Virus record (IMG/VR): IMGVR_UViG_2778261122_000008
Direction: 5' to 3' (one strand)
Length of the DNA: 8,652 nt
DNA from: a virus
Lineage: Duplodnaviria > Heunggongvirae > Uroviricota > Caudoviricetes
Shown: one piece after another, positions 449-8,652 of the stretch
Layout of the letters: each line of letters begins with the position of its first letter
Position numbering within the stretch: the first letter of the stretch is position 1
Made by a program: the position numbers and the translations under genes
Notes under the pieces: model-generated
What the model was told of the DNA's origin: nothing
Seen by the model: the letters and a program-made list of their open reading frames with translations, nothing else
The model's database searches: none

Positions 449-512
449 ATGCATACCAATAACGCTTCACTCGAGGCGTTTTCGTTATGCAATCAAACAG
501 AAGGAGCATCCT

Positions 513-683
513 ATGCAACAGTTCGCTATTGCAGGGGCGGCATCGGTTCGCCCTTTCAACCCGATTTTATCGGTACAGCATTCACGAAAAAATATTTTAA
601 CCGGAGCAGACTTTAAACAACCAAGAATGAAAAGTTTGCTCGAAAAGCTTTGGGATATTTTGAAACAACAAGGCCGTCCATGA
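513..683 (+). CDS. Hypothetical small phage protein (56 aa)
   Basis: Internal ATG of track ORF 408..683 with AAGGAG 6 nt upstream. Lies downstream of the terminator at 423..448. Its stop overlaps the next start (ATGA at 680..683). Confidence 0.45.
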   Translation: MQQFAIAGAASVRPFNPILSVQHSRKNILTGADFKQPRMKSLLEKLWDILKQQGRP

Positions 684-787
684 GTTTTACAGATAACTGG
701 TCAGACGAAGAATTCATTCGTCAGATGAACAAAATGCTCAATCAGCACAAAGAACAGGAGAAAGATGATGATTCTGACTCTGAATGA
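680..787 (+). CDS. Possible very small acidic protein (35 aa)
   Basis: Hand-translated ORF MSFTDNWSDEEFIRQMNKMLNQHKEQEKDDDSDSE. Its start is ATGA-coupled to the upstream stop. It is below the ORF-track size cutoff and overlaps the start of the next gene by 23 nt. Confidence 0.25.
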   Translation: MSFTDNWSDEEFIRQMNKMLNQHKEQEKDDDSDSE

Positions 788-1076
788 TAAGCGTGAAATA
801 TCGCAAATAATCGCAAGTTTTACTGAGGAAGATTACGAACGAATCAACAGTGAAGTTGATCGCCTCTGCAAACGTTGCGACCCAATAAGCGAAATGCTTC
901 GCTCATATAAACCAGATGAACACACTAAGGACGCTATCGACTGGCTGGAAGATGATGACTGTAACTATCAGGAAAAAGCCGCTGAATGGTTCTGGGATGC
1001 AATAACCGAAAGAGTTAAGGCTGAATATGCCTTCGCAATATTCAAACGCAGACACATTTATGGAGAAGCAGCATGA
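765..1076 (+). CDS. Hypothetical acidic phage protein (103 aa) immediately upstream of recT
   Basis: AGGAG upstream (start could be ATG 765 or 768). Stop overlaps the recT start (ATGA at 1073..1076). Rich in Asp/Glu, net negative by hand count. No family recognised. Confidence 0.6.
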   Translation: MMILTLNDKREISQIIASFTEEDYERINSEVDRLCKRCDPISEMLRSYKPDEHTKDAIDWLEDDDCNYQEKAAEWFWDAITERVKAEYAFAIFKRRHIYGEAA

Positions 1077-1984
1077 GCAATATCGTTGAATTCGTTAAAC
1101 AGCAGGAGCAGTTATTCTGCGGGGCATTGACTGAACAGACGGTGACATGGGCTAAGGAAAGCCAGTTTGCAATTCAGTATTTCCAGAAAAATGATTACCT
1201 GGCTAAAACGGCACTGGCAAATCCAACCAGCGCACAGAACGCCATCATCAATGTTGCGGCGATCGGCATCACCTTAAACCCGGCTAGCAAACTGGCTTAT
1301 CTGGTTCCGCGCGACGGCATGGTGTGCCTTGATATCAGTTATATGGGATTGCTCCATATTGCAATGGAGTCTGGTGTTATCTCATGGGGTCAGGCAAAAC
1401 TTGTTCATGCTAACGATACCTATGAGTCAAACGGGCTTGATAAAGCACCAACCCATAAATACAACGCCTTCGGTGATCGTGGTGATATCGTTGGCGTTTA
1501 CTGCACAGTTAAGACGCCAGCAGGTGATTATCTAACGGAAGAGATGAGTCTGGCTGAAATTGAGGCTGTAAGGAAAACAAGCAAGGCGGCATTCAGCGAT
1601 AAAGGACCATGGGTAAATCACTGGAATGAGATGGCGCGAAAGACGGTCGTAAAGCGTGCAAGCAAGTATTGGCCTAAGGCATCACGTCTTGATAGTGCTA
1701 TTCACGTACTAAACGAAGAAGAAGGTGTGTGGACTGAACCAGTTATGCCGCACAAATCAGAGGAAGATATCCGCGAAGATGAACGGAAACGCCAGCAGGA
1801 AATAACGGATAAAGCACAACTTCTTTGTGATGAAATGGCTCAGGCTGAAAACATGGATGATTTGAAGCGATATTTTGCAGAAGCATATCGCCTGACATCT
1901 GGAATGAAATTGCAGCAGAACGTACAAGCCATTTACATAGAATGCAAAGCGAAACTGGAGGTTGCCAGTGAGCAAACTGTATGA
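1073..1984 (+). CDS. recT: RecT-family single-strand annealing protein (phage recombinase)
   Basis: 303-aa translation. The segment GPWVNHWNEMARKTVVKRASKYWP closely resembles the conserved RecT core as I recall it from Rac RecT (GPWVTHWEEMAKKT...KYLP). GGAG 7 nt upstream of ATG. Confidence 0.85.
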   Translation: MSNIVEFVKQQEQLFCGALTEQTVTWAKESQFAIQYFQKNDYLAKTALANPTSAQNAIINVAAIGITLNPASKLAYLVPRDGMVCLDISYMGLLHIAMESGVISWGQAKLVHANDTYESNGLDKAPTHKYNAFGDRGDIVGVYCTVKTPAGDYLTEEMSLAEIEAVRKTSKAAFSDKGPWVNHWNEMARKTVVKRASKYWPKASRLDSAIHVLNEEEGVWTEPVMPHKSEEDIREDERKRQQEITDKAQLLCDEMAQAENMDDLKRYFAEAYRLTSGMKLQQNVQAIYIECKAKLEVASEQTV

Positions 1985-2450
1985 AATAGCCAATGAATAC
2001 GCAAAGCTGATGGATTCAGATTTAGAGCCAGAGATGATTGCTGACACAATAGAAGGAATGGAAGGAGAATTTACCGATAAAATAGAGCAACTTCTTGCCA
2101 TTATTAAAAATGAATCTGGTTATGCTGAACGCCTCAAGGACGAGGCAAAGTCACTGAATGAACGAGCAGCAGTAATTCAAAATAAGATTGACAGCATTAT
2201 GGCGTATATAGCGTCATCGCTTGAAATGGTTGGCAAGAAAAAGATTCGAGCAGGTATTCACCAGGTAACAATCCGCAAACCGTCAGAAACTGTAGAAATA
2301 ATCGACTCAAGCGCCCTTCCTCCTGAATACGTTGAGTTTGAAACGACAATTAAAGCTGACAAACTGGCAATCAAACACCAACTAAAAGCAGGAATAAATA
2401 TCCCCGGCGCTCAACTCAAAGTTGGGAAACCTTCACTTCTTATCAAATAA
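1968..2450 (+). CDS. Sipho_Gp157-like protein (recombination-module accessory protein)
   Basis: GTG start with GGAGG 6 nt upstream (the track begins at TTG 1962). N-terminus (M)SKLYEIANEY and C-terminus ...NIPGAQLKVGKPSLLIK match my recollection of the Gp157 family, which often sits beside RecT/Erf genes. Confidence 0.6.
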   Translation: MSKLYEIANEYAKLMDSDLEPEMIADTIEGMEGEFTDKIEQLLAIIKNESGYAERLKDEAKSLNERAAVIQNKIDSIMAYIASSLEMVGKKKIRAGIHQVTIRKPSETVEIIDSSALPPEYVEFETTIKADKLAIKHQLKAGINIPGAQLKVGKPSLLIK

Positions 2451-2461
2451 CGGTATCTCCT

Positions 2462-2776
2462 ATGAAAAAGACTCCATGGGAGAAATGGGAAGTCGATTTC
2501 TTGCGCGAAGTGGCGGCGACAATGCCAGTTGAAGTTATCGCTGAAAAACTGGAAAGGACTGAAAAAGCAGTAATGGCGAAAGCAACAAGGATTGGCGCTG
2601 ACATTGTTAGCCGACTTCGTGGAAGACGCTGGACAAGAGCCGAAGTATCACTTTTCGGTAAGTTCTCCGCAGAAGAAATAGCAATTGCAACCTGCCGCTC
2701 AATTTATTCAGTAAGAGCTATGCGATACAAGCTAAAAAAACTCGATGAAGAAAGAGCAGGCATACGAATAAATTAA
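2462..2776 (+). CDS. Hypothetical DNA-binding protein with two tandem HTH-like repeats
   Basis: 104 aa. Internal duplication: WEKWEVDFLREV..PVEVIAEKLERTEKAVMAKATRIG versus RRWTRAEVSLFGKF.AEEIAIATCRSIYSVRAMRYKLKKL. The E-x-I-A...R-[ST]-x-x-[AS]-V pattern resembles sigma-70 region 4 / LuxR / Myb-type HTH. Confidence 0.6.
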   Translation: MKKTPWEKWEVDFLREVAATMPVEVIAEKLERTEKAVMAKATRIGADIVSRLRGRRWTRAEVSLFGKFSAEEIAIATCRSIYSVRAMRYKLKKLDEERAGIRIN

Positions 2777-2792
2777 CATGGAATAATTAACA

Positions 2793-3074
2793 ATGAAGCT
2801 AAACATCGACCTCGGCAAATACGTTATTACCGGAACCAAACACGACCTGATTCTTAATGAAAGAGGAATTATCAAAGAAGGTGAGAATGCAGGGAAAGAA
2901 ACACTAAGCCGTATCGGTTATTACAGCAAGTTTGAGCATCTGGTTAAAGAGTTATGCAACCGTGAAATCCTGTTATCTCAGGCGCAGACGCTACAGGATA
3001 TTCAGCAGCATATCGAGACTTTAGGTGTGTCACTTAGCATGGCTATTGACCAGTTCGTGGAGAGTAAATCATGA
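2793..3074 (+). CDS. Hypothetical phage protein (93 aa)
   Basis: ORF in the co-directional operon. Its stop overlaps the next start (ATGA at 3071..3074). No family recognised. Confidence 0.55.
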
Positions 3075-3235
3075 GAGGACTTGCATACAATCCCGGCATT
3101 CTTCCGGCAGAAATGATTATTCGCCAACGCGTAAAGCCAATGCCATCGAGAGAGGAATTGCTTAAGAGAAATAGTTTCGGTTATGTTAATGGCAACAAAT
3201 ATCTGAATGCGATGTGGCGGAGTGGGAAGAAATGA
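3071..3235 (+). CDS. Hypothetical small phage protein (54 aa)
   Basis: Hand-translated [61 protein letters not shown]-coupled at both ends (3071 and 3232). Below the ORF-track cutoff. Confidence 0.4.
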
Positions 3236-3762
3236 AACAAATGTCACTAATTGAGATGGATGGATTTCTGAAAGGTAAATGCATCCCAAGTGATTTAAAG
3301 GTTAACGAAACAAACGCTGAATATCTGGTGCGTAAATTTGCTGAAGCGCAGGCCAAATGCGCGGCGCTGGCGGCGGAGAATGCTGGGCTGAAACATGCAA
3401 TGGCTGTAACTCTTGAGCATGTGTCGGTCACGGATGCAGGGCAGGCCGGAGTTGCTGCAATGATTATCAACGATGCCCTGCACCACAGCGAAACTCCAGC
3501 CACCGATGCTTTTCTGGCTGAAATTCGTGCGGCGGCTCGCAACGAGGGGATTAACTATACCGCAAGCCGTCTTGCTGCTGCTTTCAACCACGGATTTATC
3601 AATAAGTCTTTACGTGAAGTTTTCGACGTTACGCGCATGATTCTGTCAGCGAAAGAAGAGTTGGCTAATGAAGCGCATCCGATTGATGGCCTGTCTGGTG
3701 AATATGCGGAGAAATCCCTTGAAGAATGGGCGGAACAGATTCGCAAAGGAGGCAAGCAGTGA
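3232..3762 (+). CDS. Hypothetical phage protein (176 aa)
   Basis: In-frame ATG at 3232 within track ORF 3214..3762, overlapping the upstream stop (ATGA). No confidently recognised domain. Confidence 0.6.
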
Positions 3763-4082
3763 GCAAAATGACAATCACAAAACAACGAGTAGAAAAAATC
3801 ATATATCGCCATGAAATGGGATTGAACAGCGATGTCACTTCCGAAGAGGTTTATGACCTGGCTGTACTGGCGCTGAATTTATCAAATATCGTAAACCTCA
3901 AGCGATACGAGCTTGATATGGATGGTTGTGACTCGTTCGGTCAGGATTGTGGCGCTGACATGACTGAAGATTCTGATGGTGCTTACGTCCTGTTTGATGA
4001 CGTGGTTAAGTTGTTTGAGTTTGATACAACCACTCAGAAGCCAGAAAGCCCAGCAAAGGAGGCAACCAGTGAGCAAGATTGA
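3759..4082 (+). CDS. Hypothetical phage protein (~107 aa), GTG start
   Basis: AAGGAGG 6 nt upstream of GTG 3759, which overlaps the upstream stop (GTGA). An alternative in-frame ATG is at 3768. Shares the junction motif CAGTGAGCAA with the starts at 1968 and 4069. Confidence 0.55.
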   Translation: MSKMTITKQRVEKIIYRHEMGLNSDVTSEEVYDLAVLALNLSNIVNLKRYELDMDGCDSFGQDCGADMTEDSDGAYVLFDDVVKLFEFDTTTQKPESPAKEATSEQD

Positions 4083-4578
4083 CTATCAGGCACTGCGTGA
4101 AGCGGCACAGAACGCGAAAAATTTAGGTGGGATTAAGAATTACAAGCGAGGCGAGCAAGCTGTTGCCGAATTTAAGTCCTTGATAACGCCACATATTGTG
4201 CTGGCGCTTCTGGAAGAACGGGAAAGAAACCAGCAATACATCAAACGCCGCGACCAGGAGAACGAGGATATTGCGCTTACGGTAGGGAAGCTGCGTGTTG
4301 AGCTTGAAGCCGTGCAGAAGACATCAGCGGCACGAATCGAAGCTATAGACCGCACTCACAAAATGTTCCAGCGTGAAAAAGACCGAGCCGATGCCGCAGA
4401 GAAGTGCATAGCAGAACTGTCTGCTAGCCACAGCAAATTGCGCGACACAATGGCTGGCATCCACAACACAATCCGAATGGATGGCGGCTATACGCCACTG
4501 GCAGCAATCCTTAACGCTGCTAAACGCGCATATGAAGAATCAGCAAGCGCAGCTGGCATTCGCATCAAAGGAGAGTGA
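4069..4578 (+). CDS. Ea22-like (Ead/Ea22 family) protein, coiled-coil rich
   Basis: GTG start with AAGGAGG 6 nt upstream. N-terminal IDYQALREAAQNA and ITPHIVLALLEERE resemble motifs I recall from enterobacterial Ead/Ea22-like proteins. Position between the recombination module and xis matches lambda ea22. Confidence 0.55.
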   Translation: MSKIDYQALREAAQNAKNLGGIKNYKRGEQAVAEFKSLITPHIVLALLEERERNQQYIKRRDQENEDIALTVGKLRVELEAVQKTSAARIEAIDRTHKMFQREKDRADAAEKCIAELSASHSKLRDTMAGIHNTIRMDGGYTPLAAILNAAKRAYEESASAAGIRIKGE

Positions 4579-4579
4579 T

Positions 4580-5011
4580 ATGACCACTATAACCGATAAG
4601 AAACAGTATCCAGGCGAGCAATATCTTAATGAGCTGATCACCAACATAGAGTTTGCTGCAAGGGCACCAGTTGAAGTCGTGAGAGCGATGGCAGCAGAGC
4701 TACAGAAGCGGCGCGAAGCTGATAGTGCCGAACCTGTAAGCCAAACTTACAAGTTGAACGAGCTATCTGGCAACTCTCCGGTAACTCCGGATAGTTGGAT
4801 AAGCTGTAGTGAGCGAATGCCGAACGATAAACAGTATGTTTGGTGTTGGGGTAAGTCTTACGGCTGGACTGAGTGCAATACCTTCGAAGGGTATTACGAT
4901 TGGTCGAGAAACAAATGGTGGGCAGTTACTGACGATGGGGAAGAACCGGCATCGAAAGTAACTCACTGGATGCCGCTACCAGAACCGCCGCAGGAGGTTA
5001 ACCGTGGCTAA
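4580..5011 (+). CDS. DUF551-domain phage protein
   Basis: ATG with GGAG 6 nt upstream. The C-terminal WISCSERMPNDKQYVWCW...KVTHWMPLPEPP matches the DUF551 hallmark (W..ERLP...THWMPLPEPP) as I remember it. Confidence 0.7.
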   Translation: MTTITDKKQYPGEQYLNELITNIEFAARAPVEVVRAMAAELQKRREADSAEPVSQTYKLNELSGNSPVTPDSWISCSERMPNDKQYVWCWGKSYGWTECNTFEGYYDWSRNKWWAVTDDGEEPASKVTHWMPLPEPPQEVNRG

Positions 5012-5110
5012 CCTGCAACTTGCCGTTAAAGGTAAATAACAATCCTCGCACTCGCGGGGATTTCTTTTATCTGAACTCGCTACGGCGGGTTTTGTTTTGT
5101 GGAGATGATT

Positions 5111-5410
5111 ATGGCCTGTTCAACATTCAACCCTCTAACGTTACAGAAATACCAGCCAGACCCTGAAGATTTATGCTCACTGTGTGGCGGAATTCATGGT
5201 AAAGCCGCCATGATCGAATGTAAGGACAAAATCCACATATGCCTTAATTGCGTTGATGTCCTCGTTGATATCAAAAATGAGAGAGAAGATAAAAAGCGTA
5301 GCGAGGCTGTTCGTGCCTTAGATTCATGGATGCGAGATGGGTATAGTGCTGCGCAAATTTATGACTTAGCAATATCAAAAGGCGAAATACCTGGAGTACG
5401 CATCGAATAA
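5111..5410 (+). CDS. Hypothetical Zn-ribbon protein (CxxC...CxxC), positional analogue of lambda ea8.5
   Basis: ATG 5111 with GGAG 6 nt upstream (the track begins at GTG 5099). Cys pairs CSLCGG and CLNC. Followed by a strong terminator. Confidence 0.6.
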   Translation: MACSTFNPLTLQKYQPDPEDLCSLCGGIHGKAAMIECKDKIHICLNCVDVLVDIKNEREDKKRSEAVRALDSWMRDGYSAAQIYDLAISKGEIPGVRIE

Positions 5411-5450: not shown

Positions 5451-5473
5451 AAGCCGCCTGATGGCGGTTTTTT
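5451..5473 (+). terminator. Rho-independent terminator
   Basis: CCGCC (5454..5458), loop TGAT, GGCGG (5463..5467), then TTTTTT (5468..5473). Confidence 0.7.
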
Positions 5474-5809: not shown

Positions 5810-6157
5810 GTGGAAGAAGAAATCTTCACTCGTGAAGAAGCAGCGTCGTATCTGAAGGTAGACAAAGGAACTATCACGCAGTGGATACGAAGTGGACGAC
5901 TTCAGGCCGCAAAGATAAATCCAGATAAACCTAAAAGCCCATATCGCATTTGCAAGTCAGACTGCATTGCGGCGCTTAAGTCTGTGAGACACAATAGCGC
6001 GGTGAATGCGGTTGATGTGCAGGAGGTTAAAGCATGTCAATCAAACTACGCGGTGGCACGTGGCACTGCGATTTCGTCGCGCCAGATGGATCAAGAGTTA
6101 GACGCTCTCTTGAAACATCGGACAAGAGGCAAGCGCAAGAACTTCACGATCGTCTGA
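5810..6157 (+). CDS. xis: Excisionase-like DNA-binding protein (HTH, Xis/AlpA type)
   Basis: GTG start with GGAG upstream. N-terminal FTREEAASYLKVDKGTITQWIRSGRLQAAKI is a typical excisionase-family HTH. Sits immediately upstream of int and overlaps it by 124 nt; the true C-terminus is uncertain. Confidence 0.6.
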   Translation: MEEEIFTREEAASYLKVDKGTITQWIRSGRLQAAKINPDKPKSPYRICKSDCIAALKSVRHNSAVNAVDVQEVKACQSNYAVARGTAISSRQMDQELDALLKHRTRGKRKNFTIV

Positions 6158-7194
6158 AAGCAGAAGCGTGGAGAGTAAAAAATCTCGGAGAATCACCGAA
6201 AAAGCTATTCAAGGAAGCCTGCATACGGTGGCTGCGTGAGAAATCGGATAAGAAGTCCATTGATGATGACAAGAGCATTATATCGTTCTGGATGTTGCAC
6301 TTCAGAGAAACCATTCTCTCTGACATAACAACAGAAAAAATAATGGAGGCGGTAGACGGGATGGAAAACCGCCGCCATCGCCTGAACTGGGAAATGAGCC
6401 GGGACAGGTGTTTGCGGCTTGGCAAGCCAGTGCCGGAGTATAAACCAAAGCTGGCAAGCAAAGGAACGAAGACGCGGCATCTGGCAATACTTCGCGCTAT
6501 TCTCAATATGACTGTTGAATGGGGATGGATTGACAGGGCACCCAAAATATCAACACCACGCGTTAAGAATGGACGAATCAGATGGCTTACAGAGGAGGAA
6601 TCTAAGCGCCTGTTTGCAGAAATTGCTCCTCATTTCTTCCCTGTGGTCATGTTTGCAATCACGACAGGCCTTCGCCGTTCCAACGTTACAGACCTTGAAT
6701 GGTCACAGGTCGATCTGGATAAGAAAATGGCATGGATGCACCCTGATGAAACAAAAGCTGGCAATGCGATCGGAGTTCCTCTTAACGAAACCGCATGCCA
6801 GATATTAAGAAAACAGCAGGGTCTCCATAAGAGATGGGTATTTGTCCACACCAAACCTGCCTACCGAAGCGACGGAACAAAAACAGCAGCGGTAAGGAAG
6901 ATGAGAACCGACAGCAACAAGGCATGGAAGGGAGCGTTAAAGCGGGCAGGCATTAGCAACTTCCGCTTCCATGACCTGAGGCATACCTGGGCAAGCTGGC
7001 TGGTTCAGTCCGGTGTCTCTCTTCTTGCACTTAAAGAGATGGGAGGATGGGAAACTCTCGAAATGGTTCAAAGATACGCCCACCTTTCAGCCGGGCATCT
7101 CACCGAGCACGCTAGCAAAATCGATGCGATTATAAGTCGCAATGGCACAAATACGGCACAAGAGGAGAACGTGGTTTACTTAAATGTGAGGTAA
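6034..7194 (+). CDS. int: Tyrosine-type site-specific integrase
   Basis: 386 aa with AGGAGG 7 nt upstream. C-terminal catalytic signature TGLRRSNV...HDLRHTWAS...LEMVQRYAHL (R...HxxR...Y). Ends 14 bp from the tRNA 3' end. Confidence 0.9.
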   Translation: MSIKLRGGTWHCDFVAPDGSRVRRSLETSDKRQAQELHDRLKAEAWRVKNLGESPKKLFKEACIRWLREKSDKKSIDDDKSIISFWMLHFRETILSDITTEKIMEAVDGMENRRHRLNWEMSRDRCLRLGKPVPEYKPKLASKGTKTRHLAILRAILNMTVEWGWIDRAPKISTPRVKNGRIRWLTEEESKRLFAEIAPHFFPVVMFAITTGLRRSNVTDLEWSQVDLDKKMAWMHPDETKAGNAIGVPLNETACQILRKQQGLHKRWVFVHTKPAYRSDGTKTAAVRKMRTDSNKAWKGALKRAGISNFRFHDLRHTWASWLVQSGVSLLALKEMGGWETLEMVQRYAHLSAGHLTEHASKIDAIISRNGTNTAQEENVVYLNVR

Positions 7195-7225
7195 CTTATT
7201 GATTTAAATGGTGCCGATAATAGGA
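7195..7225. other. Probable prophage attachment junction (att core overlapping the tRNA-Thr 3' end)
   Basis: Inferred from the int-tRNA arrangement. The core cannot be delimited without the other prophage end or an empty-site sequence. Confidence 0.3.
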
Positions 7226-7284
7226 GTCGAACCTACGACCTTCGCATTACGAATGCGCTGCTCTACCAACTGAGCTATATCGGC
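7209..7284 (-). tRNA. thrW: tRNA-Thr (anticodon CGU)
   Basis: The reverse complement reads GCCGATATAGCTCAGTTGGTAGAGCAGCGCATTCGTAATGCGAAGGTCGTAGGTTCGACTCCTATTATCGGCACCA (76 nt). It has a 7-bp acceptor stem GCCGATA/TATCGGC, a D-arm, the anticodon loop TTCGTAA (CGT), a T-arm GGTTCGACTCC and an encoded CCA. Matches E. coli thrW as I recall it. Confidence 0.93.
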
Positions 7285-7398
7285 CCTGAAAGGACATGTT
7301 CACGAACGTGAATCACGGTGGACAAGGTTAAAACTAACCGGGCGATGCGTCAATGGCCTTGTGAATCAAATGGCTACTTTTGCATCACCCGGTTTTAT

Positions 7399-8652
7399 TT
7401 ACGCACGAATGGTGTAATCACCAATGCCGATCCACTTATAAGTGGTCAGAGCTTCCAGCCCCATTGGGCCGCGCGCGTGGAGTTTTTGTGTGCTTACCGC
7501 AACTTCCGCCCCCAGTCCAAACTGGCCGCCGTCGGTAAAACGCGTAGAGGCGTTAACGTAAACAGCGGAGGAATCCACTTCGTTAACAAAACGCTGGGCG
7601 TTGCGCATATCGCGGGTCAGGATCGCATCGGAGTGTTGCGTGCCGTGTTCACGAATATGGGCAATGGCGTCATCCAGATCGCTAACGATTTTGACGTTCA
7701 AATCTAATGACAGAAACTCATCGTCATACTCTTCGGCTTTAACAGCCACCACCTTCGCGGGGCCTGCCTGCAACTGCGCCAGCGCGGCTGCATCAGCGTG
7801 TAACGTCACGCCGCTTTCCGCCATTTGTTTGCTTAATGCGGGCAGGAAGCTATCAGCGATGTTTTTATTCACCAGCAACGTTTCTACCGTATTACATGTG
7901 CTCGGACGCTGAGTTTTCGCGTTGACAATTACTTTCAGGGCTTCAGCGATCTCTGCACTTTCATCAACGTAAATATGGCATACGCCTATACCGCCTGTGA
8001 TCACCGGGATTGTCGACTGCTCGCGGCACAGTTTATGCAAACCAGCCCCACCGCGCGGGATCAGCATGTCGATGTATTTATCCATACGCAGCATTTCACT
8101 GACCAGCGCACGGTCAGGATTATCAATTGCCTGCACGGCACCCGCCGGTAAGCCGCAGGATTTCAGGGCGTCCTGAATCACCGCTACCGTTGCAGCGTTA
8201 GTGCGACAGGTTTCTTTGCCGCCGCGCAGGATCACCGCGTTACCGGTTTTCAGGCACAGGGAAGCAACATCAACCGTCACGTTCGGGCGCGCTTCATAAA
8301 TCACGCCAATCACCCCCAGCGGTACGCGACGACGCTCAAGACGCAGGCCGCTGTCCAGTACGCCGCCATCGATTACCTGCCCCACCGGATCGGCGAGATT
8401 GCACACCTGGCGCACATCGTCGGCAATGCCTTTCAGCCGTGCGGGCGTCAGTGCCAGACGGTCAAGCATCGCTTCGCTAAGGCCATTGGCACACGCGTCT
8501 GCAACATCCTGCGCGTTAGCGTTGAGGATACTTTCGCTTTGTGCTTCCAGTTCATCGGCGATTTTTTCCAGCACACGATTTTTTTCGCGGCTGGAGAGTT
8601 GCGCTAATTTATACGAGGCTTGCTTCGCGGCAATGCCCATTTGTTCCAGCAT
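7399..8652 (-). CDS. proA: Gamma-glutamyl phosphate reductase (glutamate-5-semialdehyde dehydrogenase)
   Basis: The 417-aa translation starts [21 protein letters not shown] and ends DYTIRA, recognisable as enterobacterial ProA. The start codon is at the window edge and the stop is TAA at 7399..7401. Confidence 0.95.

Follow-up and report, generated by a model that had tools for sequence, protein, structure and literature searches.

The short motif that recurs at three gene starts in the DNA analysed here (a virus-derived stretch of 8,652 nucleotides, hereafter the window) is the ribosome-binding and start signal ahead of Ea22-like prophage genes, and it overlaps a known lambdoid boundary sequence, bsq3. 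Its recognition here is a correct rediscovery, not the discovery of a new element; the principle that it illustrates is likewise not new, since bsq3 was described in 2001. In that year, Clark, Inwood, Cloutier & Dhillon reportedly described seven boundary sequences in J Mol Biol 311:657. An earlier note on this DNA had read the motif as a DNA-level linker of the kind that mediates module shuffling, a reading already published and supported here for two copies, both at mosaic boundaries and one overlapping bsq3. What was observed directly is the make-up of the junctions, their identity to bsq3, the way in which flanks reassort and where the breakpoints lie. The explanation as a whole, in which the cassette and bsq3 act together as a start signal on the mRNA and a homology block on the DNA and in which the two near-identical copies have separate native origins, is probably correct.

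Genomic setting

The window holds a lambdoid early-left operon, from a prophage that lies integrated next to tRNA-Thr and proA, with a gene context given by Pfam as RecT, Gp157, DUF2737 and Ead_Ea22. The genes referred to below are the following.

1073..1984, + strand: recT, single-strand annealing recombinase (Pfam PF03837, E = 2.9e-32; annotations)
1968..2450, + strand: Siphovirus Gp157-family gene (Pfam PF05565, E = 1.4e-36)
3232..3762, + strand: gene A, 176 aa, no Pfam match, with a homologue named YfdS family by PGAP
3759..4082, + strand: gene X, a small family-less gene of 107 aa (from GTG 3759) or 104 aa (from ATG 3768)
4069..4578, + strand: Ead/Ea22-like gene, 169 aa (Pfam PF13935, E = 7e-20)
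6034-7194: prophage tyrosine integrase, the sole integrase in the window

The Ead/Ea22-like protein belongs to PF13935, which it matches over residues 2-115 with 72.5 bits against a cut-off of 27, and the genes at 3232-3762 and 3759-4082 returned nothing from Pfam or NCBIfam. Gene A is itself mosaic, and its C-terminal domain and tail also terminate some Ea22-like proteins; gene X is immediately followed by an Ea22-like gene in most of the other phages that were examined. RefSeq gives the Gp157 gene the same GTG start (1968) in HK140 and E. coli TUM9803. A consensus scan of the + strand from 480 to 5041 found no promoter-like or terminator-like site, and by that scan the stretch reads as one polycistron, with its genes on a single predicted transcript.

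Anatomy of the start signal

The motif GGAGG-N4-CAGTGAGCAA occurs at 1957, 3748 and 4058 and in none of the shuffled sequences, in agreement with the coordinates and sequences first given for it.

3743..3769, + strand: copy 1, with Shine-Dalgarno (SD) GGAGG at 3748-3752, GTG at 3759-3761, the upstream TGA at 3760-3762 and a native ATG at 3768-3770
4053..4079, + strand: copy 2, with SD GGAGG at 4058-4062, the Ead/Ea22-like GTG at 4069-4071 and the gene X TGA at 4080-4082
1957..1976, + strand: copy 3, the SD and GTG (1968) of the Gp157-family gene, inside the recT 3' end (stop 1982-1984, a 17-nt overlap)

Exact + strand matches to GGAGGNNNNCAGTGAGCAA lie at 1957-1975, 3748-3766 and 4058-4076, and no match of this kind arose in any of 200 dinucleotide shuffles. 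The 27-mer at 3743-3769 recurs at 4053-4079 with two mismatches (25/27, as had been claimed), a repeat that 0/200 shuffles reproduced. These two copies have exact runs of just 13 and 10 nt in common. A chance origin of the motif is ruled out by the shuffles, which never gave either the motif or the 27-mer repeat.

The GTG codons at 1968, 3759 and 4069 each lie 6 nt downstream of GGAGG, and the observation of the earlier note on reading frames also proved right. At copy 1 the stop of the upstream open reading frame (ORF) is the TGA within GTGA (3760-3762), whereas at copies 2 and 3 the upstream ORF runs in the other frame, reading AGT GAG CAA across the GTG, and stops 11 nt (4080-4082, at 4069) or 14 nt (1982-1984, at 1968) after the G of GTG. 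All three copies thus place an SD 5-9 nt before a start codon on the same strand as, and at or near, an upstream stop. The motif is conserved whichever frame the upstream gene uses, and it is therefore best described as a DNA-level junction element.

The motif, with the consensus AAAGGAGG-CAACCA-GTGA(GCAA), is probably the junction cassette of the ea (exo-xis) part of the lambdoid early-left operon. On the mRNA, it would supply a strong Shine-Dalgarno sequence 6 nt ahead of a GTG start. Since the upstream stop either overlaps this GTG (as GTGA) or falls 11-14 nt past it, neighbouring genes are likely to be translationally coupled across the cassette.

Copy 2, bsq3 and the conserved block

Copy 2 comprises the Shine-Dalgarno sequence, the GTG start and the first codons of the Ead/Ea22-like gene, and it leads directly into two further features.

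4070..4100, + strand: bsq3, TGAGCAAGATTGACTATCAGGCACTGCGTGA, encoding the conserved N-terminus SKIDYQALRE of Ea22-like proteins
4053..4115, + strand: widely shared block of cassette plus bsq3 with reassorting flanks, delimited by BLAST ends, partial E. coli matches and column conservation

Positions 4070-4100 are 31/31 identical to 19844-19874 of Sf6 (NC_005344.1), a misc_feature labelled 'bsq3; boundary sequence', the link to bsq3 being drawn from the annotation of the Sf6 record and a secondary citation. This identity belongs to copy 2; copies 1 and 3 each share just TGAGCAA(A) with bsq3. The hkaH/hkaG junction of HK620 carries cgcaaaggaggcagccaGTGagcaagattgac.

The extent of the block was delimited in several ways. 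BLAST alignments between the window and fetched loci start mainly at 4050-4059 (161) and end mainly at 4100-4119 (143). An 81-nt query (4040-4120) matched 252 phage records (Escherichia, Stx-converting, Salmonella and Shigella phages), most of them in the centre only, showing that the block is conserved across otherwise divergent lambdoid phages of several hosts. Among 5,426 complete E. coli genomes, 1,462 gave a match and 391 of these 1,462 held the 3999-4139 junction intact; most of the remaining matches cover only ~4053-4115 (query ~55-117), next to genes for YfdS, DUF2737, DUF7446, DUF4752 or other Ea22 proteins. The flanks fall into 37 left and 23 right classes, of which 84 combinations were seen, which is the pattern of a mosaic boundary.

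In the column profile, conservation spans ~-14 to +50 relative to the GTG, and the spacer CAACCA is conserved at 0.80-0.95 versus 0.58-0.89 for synonymous sites of the adjacent ORF; the loci were partly ascertained through the motif itself, so the apparent conservation is inflated. An empirical background value for GTGAGCAA at SD-bearing gene starts was derived from the fetched loci and discarded, because these loci had been selected through the motif. When loci were collected by their Ea22 proteins, independently of the motif, aaaGGAGGC[AG][AG]CCAGTGAGC was present at ~40 of 57 distinct starts. The GGAGG cassette is found in 20 of 26 upstream gene classes, and the classes use both frames, 17 stopping at +1 and 9 at +11. 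Some Ea22-like genes, including that of Sf6, have unrelated leaders, so expression does not depend on the cassette.

At the DNA level, the cassette and the first ~31-45 nt of the Ea22-like ORF together form a ~60-nt block (4053-4115) that contains bsq3, is near-identical among otherwise dissimilar phages and has freely reassorting flanks.

Copy 1 as a hybrid joint

Copy 1 consists of the tail of the gene at 3232-3762 and the same cassette up to GTGAGCAA, joined to the native ATG of gene X at 3768. No complete E. coli genome spans 3690-3830, alignments breaking at 3759-3764, and an exact search for the left joint, CAGTGAGCAAAATGACRATCACAAAAC, gave no match in GTDB species representatives or IMG/VR; the joint was recovered in draft assemblies via an exact-protein look-up. 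In one draft assembly (L296), a different, Lar-like gene precedes the identical 27-mer and gene X; homology of this assembly to the window begins exactly at 3743, and the crossover between the two is confined to at most 13 nt of identity left of 3756. Elsewhere, the gene A tail with GGAGGCAGCCAGTGA is joined to a methyltransferase, DUF4752 or Ea22 gene, and homology stops directly after the GTGA.

These joints suggest how the window came to hold two near-identical copies. Gene X (3768-4082) would natively end in the cassette in one reading frame, and it would have been joined behind gene A, which has the same cassette, read in the other frame, as the native end of its own tail; two copies would be present because both tails end in this way. 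The left joint would be a crossover within GTGAGCAA|AATGAC, where the Ea22 leader resembles the gene X leader (GGTGAGCAAAAATGAC in other phages). The runs shared there (at most 13 nt) are below the reported pairing minimum, so the exchange at this joint would have been on the scale of microhomology.

The earlier statement that all three downstream proteins begin (M)SK is not established, since gene X homologues begin at the codon that corresponds to ATG 3768, and public gene calls for this very prophage disagree, some giving a 107-aa (GTG) and others a 104-aa (ATG) gene X. At homologous junctions, PGAP annotates GTG starts with a 4-nt overlap. Inconsistent calling of start codons, as with the 107 or 104 aa of gene X, is thus a consequence of hybrid joints for annotation.

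Copy 3 at the RecT/Gp157 junction

The RecT/Gp157 junction is intact in 292/292 E. coli genomes that carry it, and its flanks are invariant in every locus examined. Copy 3 is a fixed coupling junction of the RecT-Gp157 module and is never mosaic; the linker reading fails here, and the expectation that the motif would mark module boundaries in related phages and prophages holds for the other two copies and not for this one. As an ungapped repeat, copy 3 is 18/23 identical, within the range of chance repeat families of this window (by analytic estimate, chance alone would give ~9 shared exact 11-mers over 8.6 kb), and its significance therefore rests on its position, i.e., the SD spacing, the start codon and the first two codons.

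Copy 3 may share the cassette through old common descent or through convergence. It is quite possible that its likeness to the Ea22 cassette is fortuitous, or arose by convergence on a favourable start context, with no common ancestry behind it, and we lean only slightly against this account. Both the chance-range identity and the absence of mosaicism fit this account, as does the start of RecT, which begins ATGAGCAA (1073) after GGAG, so that this operon commonly combines MS[KN] starts with a start/stop overlap. However, copy 3 is 18/19 identical to a natural Ea22 cassette variant, GGAGGCTGCCAGTGAGCAA, with equal spacing and start codon, and a chance match at one of ~17 gene starts was put at ~1e-4 or lower by a rough, purely analytic estimate. 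A search for diverged Gp157 homologues returned only sequences of at least 97% identity.

Exchange at the block and alternative explanations

The boundary-sequence model is credited to Clark 2001 and Susskind & Botstein 1978, and the boundary sequences are given a proposed role as a focus of homologous recombination that reassorts modules (PMC3029335). The reported lower limits for efficient pairing are 23-27 bp with Red-beta and 31-34 bp with RecA, and short diverged homology is enough for exchange driven by phage recombinases of the Rad52-like type (PMC3945230). For pairs whose flanks differ, the shared exact run in the block has a median of 23 nt; it is 23 nt or longer in 57% of these pairs and 31 nt or longer in 25%, and in a four-gamete test all four gametes were present in 494/703 site pairs inside the block. 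Patterns of this kind suggest, indirectly, that the block may be a focus of homologous recombination. The likely route would be that lambdoid genomes resident in one cell recombine through their homology in the block, with assistance from phage annealing recombinases, of which the RecT of this operon is an example. Breakpoints are also common within genes (3340-3400, 3490-3530, 4190-4209 and 4300-4329), and the cassette is thus not the sole point of exchange. The motif may act as a cause of exchange, beyond marking the viable joints that survive.

An alternative to this causal role is the Hendrix model, in which illegitimate recombination makes joints anywhere and selection keeps those with a working RBS and start. 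The motif would then be only an efficient initiation or coupling signal and, because selection retains functional joints, its conserved sequence would mark survivors and cause nothing. The breakpoints inside genes fit this model, and so do the joints of gene X with its various upstream genes, which differ at the nucleotide level, and the joint in the window, which involves just ~8-13 nt of shared sequence; moreover, most mosaic boundaries have no findable boundary sequences (PMC3029335), and ~70% of recent mosaics show no trace of flanking homology (PMC3945230). However, this model does not readily account for the same ~60-nt block at 84 flank combinations, for the four-gamete patterns within it or for exact runs that often attain the Red-beta pairing minimum. 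A generic RBS requirement is also insufficient because CAACCA is more conserved than synonymous sites of the neighbouring ORF, and stays so in either upstream frame. On balance, the Hendrix model is the less likely account of the motif.

A recent local tandem duplication, copying the junction and possibly a gene within the prophage, was the second reading offered in the earlier note, and two 93%-identical copies do lie 310 nt apart in direct orientation. No repeated unit that includes the flanks was found: the similarity covers ~27-45 nt only, ending within ~45 nt, and the genes downstream of copies 1 and 2 are unrelated. Each left flank is found separately in other phages with other partners, the gene A tail being already on the cassette in L047, L052, L136 and L187, of which the last two have a joint of gene A to Ea22; for the gene X tail this holds in L006, L062, L069 and L144. 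These occurrences refute the suggestion, and a duplication is now highly improbable. A cis-regulatory RNA or a binding site for a protein or sRNA, e.g., a structured Ea22 leader or an operator, could also impose nucleotide conservation beyond the demands of the upstream coding frames, and a 5-bp hairpin, ACTGG-N6-CCAGT (1954-1969), does overlap the SD at the RecT/Gp157 copy. However, the three junctions fold no more stably than shuffled sequences (z = +1.28, -0.13 and +0.01), Rfam matches are to tRNA only, and third-codon positions in bsq3 vary as protein-level constraint predicts, all of which makes a regulatory element very unlikely.

Comparison with known systems

The correspondence with bsq3 extends beyond the identity to Sf6, as both sequences lie at the start of an ead/Ea22-like gene in an early-left operon and have flanks that vary between phages. 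However, the motif as first reported is centred ~10-20 nt upstream of bsq3, on the SD/GTGA cassette, which is missing in Sf6 and present in HK620 and at most Ea22 starts. In addition, copy 1 retains just the opening 8-9 nt of bsq3, after which another gene is joined on, and copy 3 is not at an Ea22 gene.

Start/stop overlaps of the form ATGA are typical of lambdoid nin genes (PMC8022706). As there, a downstream start in the window overlaps an upstream TGA, within a long stretch in which the consensus scan found no internal promoters or terminators. In contrast, the overlap here is GTGA with a conserved SD and spacer, and at two of the three copies the upstream ORF continues across the GTGA in the other frame to a stop 11-14 nt on.

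De Paepe et al. 2014 (PMC3945230) studied relaxed homologous recombination of lambdoid phages with prophages, carried out by Rad52-like recombinases. Short and partly diverged homology islands flank the exchanged segments there, as they do here, and the operon of the window has its own gene for a RecT-family recombinase 1.8 kb upstream. However, those exchanges were measured over hundreds of bp of homology, whereas the island here, deduced from sequence, is ~60 nt, and the joint in the window itself has only 8-13 nt.

A single small gene (3768-4082) between two repeated junction copies resembles a moron or an integron cassette. Both were rejected. Around 3759-4082 no promoter or terminator was found, so gene X does not have the signals of its own expected of a moron; there is no attC-like folded site, as the junctions fold no better than shuffles, and the only integrase is the prophage tyrosine integrase and not an integron integrase. 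The repeats here are, instead, the native tails of two neighbouring genes.

Broader implications

The ~60-nt block doubles as an RBS with start codon and as a homology island, and because it offers stops in both alternative frames, any upstream gene may be joined to it. The site is compact and experimentally tractable for asking whether short boundary sequences drive phage mosaicism.

A wider reading is offered tentatively, as one that we consider rather doubtful. The core AAAGGAGGCAACCAGTGA(GCAA) would be a portable start-and-crossover cassette and, together with ATCAAAGGAGAGTGAKATG (the 'KGE' tail of Ea22 3' ends), would make up a junction grammar for swapping single accessory genes. At least six unrelated families could use the portable cassette, namely Ea22, gene X, the genes with products beginning VSNRFYMMCL, VSNSARLQLG and VSNYLYWSGL, the methyltransferase, DUF4752 and possibly Gp157. 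Annealing recombinases would exploit such a grammar in a frame-tolerant fashion. If this were true, the old dispute over linker-mediated versus illegitimate recombination could be settled with such sites as a defined substrate. The 3' side of the Ea22-like gene provides one further feature of this kind.

4564..4582, + strand: second recurrent junction cassette, ATCAAAGGAGAGTGATATG, at the 3' end of the Ea22-like gene

This second cassette supplies the KGE* tail of the Ea22-like protein, the TGA stop and, for the gene that follows, both SD and ATG, and it is present at 63 of 105 distinct Ea22-like 3' ends, with diverse genes downstream. For annotation, this means that C-terminal 'motifs' of the KGG-N-Q or K/RGE kind probably reflect the RBS of the next gene and are not functional peptide motifs.

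Prophage setting and gene content

The stretch is the early-left (exo-xis, 'ea') region of a lambdoid prophage, IMGVR_UViG_2778261122_000008, with the following features:

1073-1984, RecT
1968-2450, Sipho_Gp157
2793-3074, DUF5405
3071-3235, DUF2737
3232-3762, gene A, without a Pfam match; homologue assigned to the YfdS family by PGAP
3759 or 3768 to 4082, gene X, of no known family
4069-4578, Ead_Ea22 (PF13935, E = 7e-20)
4580-5011, DUF551
6034-7194, tyrosine integrase, end of the prophage
7212-7284, minus strand, tRNA-Thr, adjoining the integrase end
next after tRNA-Thr, proA

The closest phage relatives (HK140, mEpX1, Kapi1 and others) each align to under half of the query, in multiple segments, showing that the relationship is highly mosaic. 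Gene junctions in the early-left stretch are mostly 4-nt ATGA or GTGA overlaps, and a scan of the plus strand from 480 to 5041 found no promoter-like or terminator-like sites. About 17 nt separate the end of the integrase gene from the tRNA-Thr gene, with proA next; the arrangement is that of a thrW-type attachment site, a position occupied by varied prophages among E. coli genomes.

A recurrent junction motif and its identity with bsq3

The sequence GGAGGNNNNCAGTGAGCAA has exact plus-strand matches at 1957-1975, 3748-3766 and 4058-4076, i.e., within copy 3 (1957-1976), copy 1 (3743-3769) and copy 2 (4053-4079) of the motif, and was matched in 0 of 200 dinucleotide-preserving shuffles, which rules out a chance origin. 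As the earlier note had described, the 27-mer of copy 1 returns in copy 2 with two mismatches, and a GTG lies 6 nt past GGAGG in all three copies. Its description of the frames was also accurate: the ORF before 3759 stops at the TGA within GTGA (3760-3762), while those before 1968 and 4069 run in another frame, AGT GAG CAA, and stop at 1982-1984 and 4080-4082. As a plain repeat, copy 3 shows 18/23 identity, a level that many chance repeats here also reach; it is distinctive by its register with the Shine–Dalgarno (SD) site, the start codon and the first two codons. The sequence itself shows the layout of the cassette: an SD, a spacer and GTGA, the upstream genes stopping at +1 or at +11 to +14. 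A structured RNA was rejected on fold z-scores of +1.28, −0.13 and +0.01 for the junctions, and a known RNA family because the only Rfam match in the window is the tRNA.

A search of phage records with 4040-4120 reached the Sf6 feature 'bsq3; boundary sequence' (NC_005344.1, 19844-19874), TGAGCAAGATTGACTATCAGGCACTGCGTGA, which is identical at 31/31 positions to window 4070-4100; bsq2 to bsq7 are annotated in the Sf6 record. The hkaH/hkaG junction of HK620 carries cgcaaaggaggcagccaGTGagcaagattgac. Clark et al. 2001 is the HK620 paper, and its abstract reportedly describes seven boundary sequences in the metabolic domain of lambdoid genomes. The proposal that boundary sequences are homologous-recombination sites making mosaic junctions is credited to Clark et al. 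2001 and Susskind & Botstein 1978 (PMC3029335). The motif is real but not of a new kind, copy 2 being bsq3 as annotated in Sf6. Given the identity in Sf6 and the HK620 junction, the idea of a DNA linker for module shuffling, reached in the earlier note, is an independent rediscovery of bsq3 plus its common upstream SD/GTGA extension, the latter going beyond the annotated feature.

A second published boundary sequence is present at 328-440, which is identical at 113/113 positions to the Sf6 'bsq4; boundary sequence' and contains a tL2A-type terminator hairpin (423-440). BLAST alignments of the window to phages and E. coli often start at 326-328, and bsq4 thus behaves as a boundary here.

Two of the three junctions are boundaries

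Each copy was placed at the centre of a 141-nt query, and the three queries were compared with 5,426 complete E. coli genomes, a junction being called intact when at least 80% of the query was matched.

Table. Motif junctions in complete E. coli genomes
RecT/Gp157 (copy 3), query 1898-2038: 292 genomes match, 292 intact, never broken
Gene X/Ea22 (copy 2), query 3999-4139: 1,462 genomes match, 391 intact
Gene A/gene X (copy 1), query 3690-3830: 849 genomes match, 0 intact

Most partial matches to the gene X/Ea22 query are limited to its positions 55-117 (window 4053-4115), where they adjoin YfdS-family, DUF2737, DUF7446, DUF4752 or other Ea22 genes, and the gene A/gene X matches end or begin at 3759-3764. 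Local BLAST against the fetched loci agrees, with HSP starts clustered at 4050-4059 and ends at 4100-4119; 4053, the left end of the second 27-mer, is the left edge of a common block of ~60 nt holding the cassette and bsq3. Flanks reassort combinatorially, with breakpoints clustered at this block. Thus, the motif marks module boundaries in related prophages at copies 1 and 2 but not at RecT/Gp157, a look-alike that provides a clean internal control, and the reading of the motif in the earlier note was largely right.

Breakpoints relative to related loci also cluster inside gene A and the Ea22-like gene (3340-3400, 3490-3530, 4190-4209 and 4300-4329), which indicates domain-level shuffling within both. 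Proteins called ead/Ea22-like by PGAP can likewise end in the gene A C-terminal domain (locus L204).

Conservation at Ea22-like gene starts

An exact-pattern scan of IMG/VR returned two large match classes: the RecT/Gp157 junction, with flanks that never vary, and Ea22-like gene starts, GGAGGCAACCAGTGAGCAAGATTGACTATCAGGCACTGCGTGA, behind many unrelated upstream sequences. In a second sample, gathered by protein sequence to escape selection on the motif, aaaGGAGGC[AG][AG]CCA-GTG-AGC was found at ~40 of 57 distinct Ea22-like starts, the remainder having unrelated leaders with an ATG start. The GGAGG cassette occurs in 20 of 26 upstream gene classes. Of the 26, 17 have an upstream ORF ending at +1, as an NTGA overlap, and 9 have one ending at +11 (GATTGA). 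The cassette is therefore conserved as DNA whatever the upstream frame, which bears out the key argument of the earlier note. The block holds stops for both alternative frames, cagTGA and gatTGA, so that an upstream gene of either frame ends inside it.

Over 84 flank combinations (37 left × 23 right classes), the columns between about −14 and +50, counted from the GTG, are highly conserved, and those beyond are at background level. The spacer CAACCA, outside the coding frame, scores 0.80-0.95. Third codon positions are the least conserved within the Ea22 ORF (0.58-0.89), a pattern suggesting that the N-terminal peptide SKIDYQALRE is constrained at the protein level.

Copy 1 as a hybrid joint

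Gene X homologues start at an ATG equivalent to window 3768 (AAAAATGAC[AG]ATCACAAAACAACG), behind five distinct joints in other phages:

tatatcggagtgaagagaaaaATG
cgcaaaggaggagggcaaaaATGA
cgcaaaggatgtgatcaaaaATGA
cagggaggtgagcaaaaATGA
caggaaggtgagcaaaaATGA

The gene A tail (…gaagaatgggcggaacagattcgcaaaGGAGGCA.CCAGTGA) is elsewhere fused directly to other genes, with homology stopping just past GTGA; its partners are Ea22-like genes (loci L047, L052, L136, L187 and others), a methyltransferase gene (L203) and a DUF4752 gene (L204). Copy 1 is therefore a hybrid of the gene A tail, the cassette through GTGAGCAA and gene X's own ATG, joined at a point of resemblance between the leader of Ea22 (GTGAGCAAGATTGAC) and that native to gene X (GGTGAGCAAAAATGAC). 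GTG 3759 shares the frame of this ATG solely through a run of four A's in the window, the other leaders having five. Lying 6 nt from GGAGG, compared with 15 nt for ATG 3768, this GTG is the better placed start in the window, while the homologues use ATG instead; the truncated-bsq3 joint would thus shift the likely start of this small gene. Public calls on the identical prophage differ accordingly between 107 aa from GTG, with a 4-nt upstream overlap, and 104 aa from ATG (L289 versus L295/L297, window 3759-3770), an inconsistency that the hybrid joint creates.

The gene A/gene X joint was not found in IMG/VR or among GTDB species representatives; it occurs in draft assemblies with the same prophage (100% identity over 5.3 kb). 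In L296 (GCA_027176025.1), the identical 27-mer and identical gene X follow a Lar-like gene, with homology starting exactly at 3743. Copy 1 has therefore been an exchange site as well, its crossover falling within the 13 nt that precede the C/G difference at 3756.

Local duplication, which the earlier note had offered as an alternative, is rejected because each copy's flanks are found on their own in other phages, and because the genes that follow the copies bear no relation to each other. A moron is rejected for lack of its own promoter or terminator, and an integron cassette for lack of an attC-like fold.

In IMG/VR contig 2609459797_000004 (L029, ~7284-7620), a gene X homologue contributes its N-terminal ~95 residues, which run in frame into a gene A-type segment corresponding to residues ~88-100 of gene A, which reads as a natural fusion of gene X with a gene A-type C-terminal domain.

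Copy 3 and the recT start

Copy 3 is the start of the Gp157-family gene, within the last 17 nt of recT, and RefSeq annotates the same GTG in HK140 and E. coli TUM9803. Its flanks are invariant across all loci and genomes examined, and the Gp157 relatives retrieved are all at least 97% identical. Its 18/19 identity to the natural cassette variant GGAGGCTGCCAGTGAGCAA makes a shared origin with the cassette plausible; convergence on a good start context is possible.

An inverted repeat at 1954-1969 (ACTGG-AGGTTG-CCAGT) forms a 5-bp hairpin covering part of the Gp157 SD, which could tie Gp157 translation to the completion of recT by ribosomes; the overall fold stability of this region is no higher than that of shuffled sequences. 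The recT start (1062-1080) reads GGAGAAGCAGCATGAGCAAT, with an ATGA overlap with the upstream gene and a protein beginning MSN. It resembles copy 1 (GGAGGCAAGCAGTGAGCAAA) once two small gaps are allowed, and may be a degenerate fourth copy.

Exchange at the block

By analogy with the ATGA overlaps of nin genes (PMC8022706), neighbouring genes would be translationally coupled along the polycistron. The block would act as the segment on which partners pair in homologous exchange. In support of this, the exact runs shared between sequences that differ in their flanks have a median of 23 nt (57% reach 23 nt or more, 25% reach 31 nt or more), and all four gametes occur in 494 of 703 polymorphic site pairs inside the block. 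Efficient pairing takes a minimum of 23-27 bp with Red-beta and 31-34 bp with RecA, and where homology is short or diverged, exchange is dominated by Rad52-like phage recombinases, RecT proteins included (PMC3945230). However, several observations argue against a purely homology-driven view: breakpoints are frequent within genes too, the window's own joints show just 8-13 nt of identity, some Ea22 genes have unrelated leaders, and the sample was partly gathered via the motif itself.

A second cassette and a neighbouring ORF

The Ea22-like gene ends (4564-4582) in ..IKGE*, encoded on ATCAAAGGAGAGTGATATG, and atcAAAGGAGAGTGA[tg]ATG occurs at 63 of 105 distinct Ea22-like 3′ ends, followed by diverse genes. 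The 'common K/RGE motif' that PMC7093339 describes for the C-termini of Ea22 would thus probably represent the following gene's SD site, and with it another recurring junction cassette, and the conserved C-terminal 'motifs' KGGNQ* and KGE* are probably footprints of next-gene ribosome-binding sites.

Downstream, a 99-aa ORF (5111-5410) with paired cysteines (CSLCGG...CLNC) gives weak matches to the ClpX N-terminal zinc-binding region (E about 0.006, far below family cut-offs) and is flanked by terminator-like hairpins at 5041-5092 and 5451-5470, a moron-like layout.
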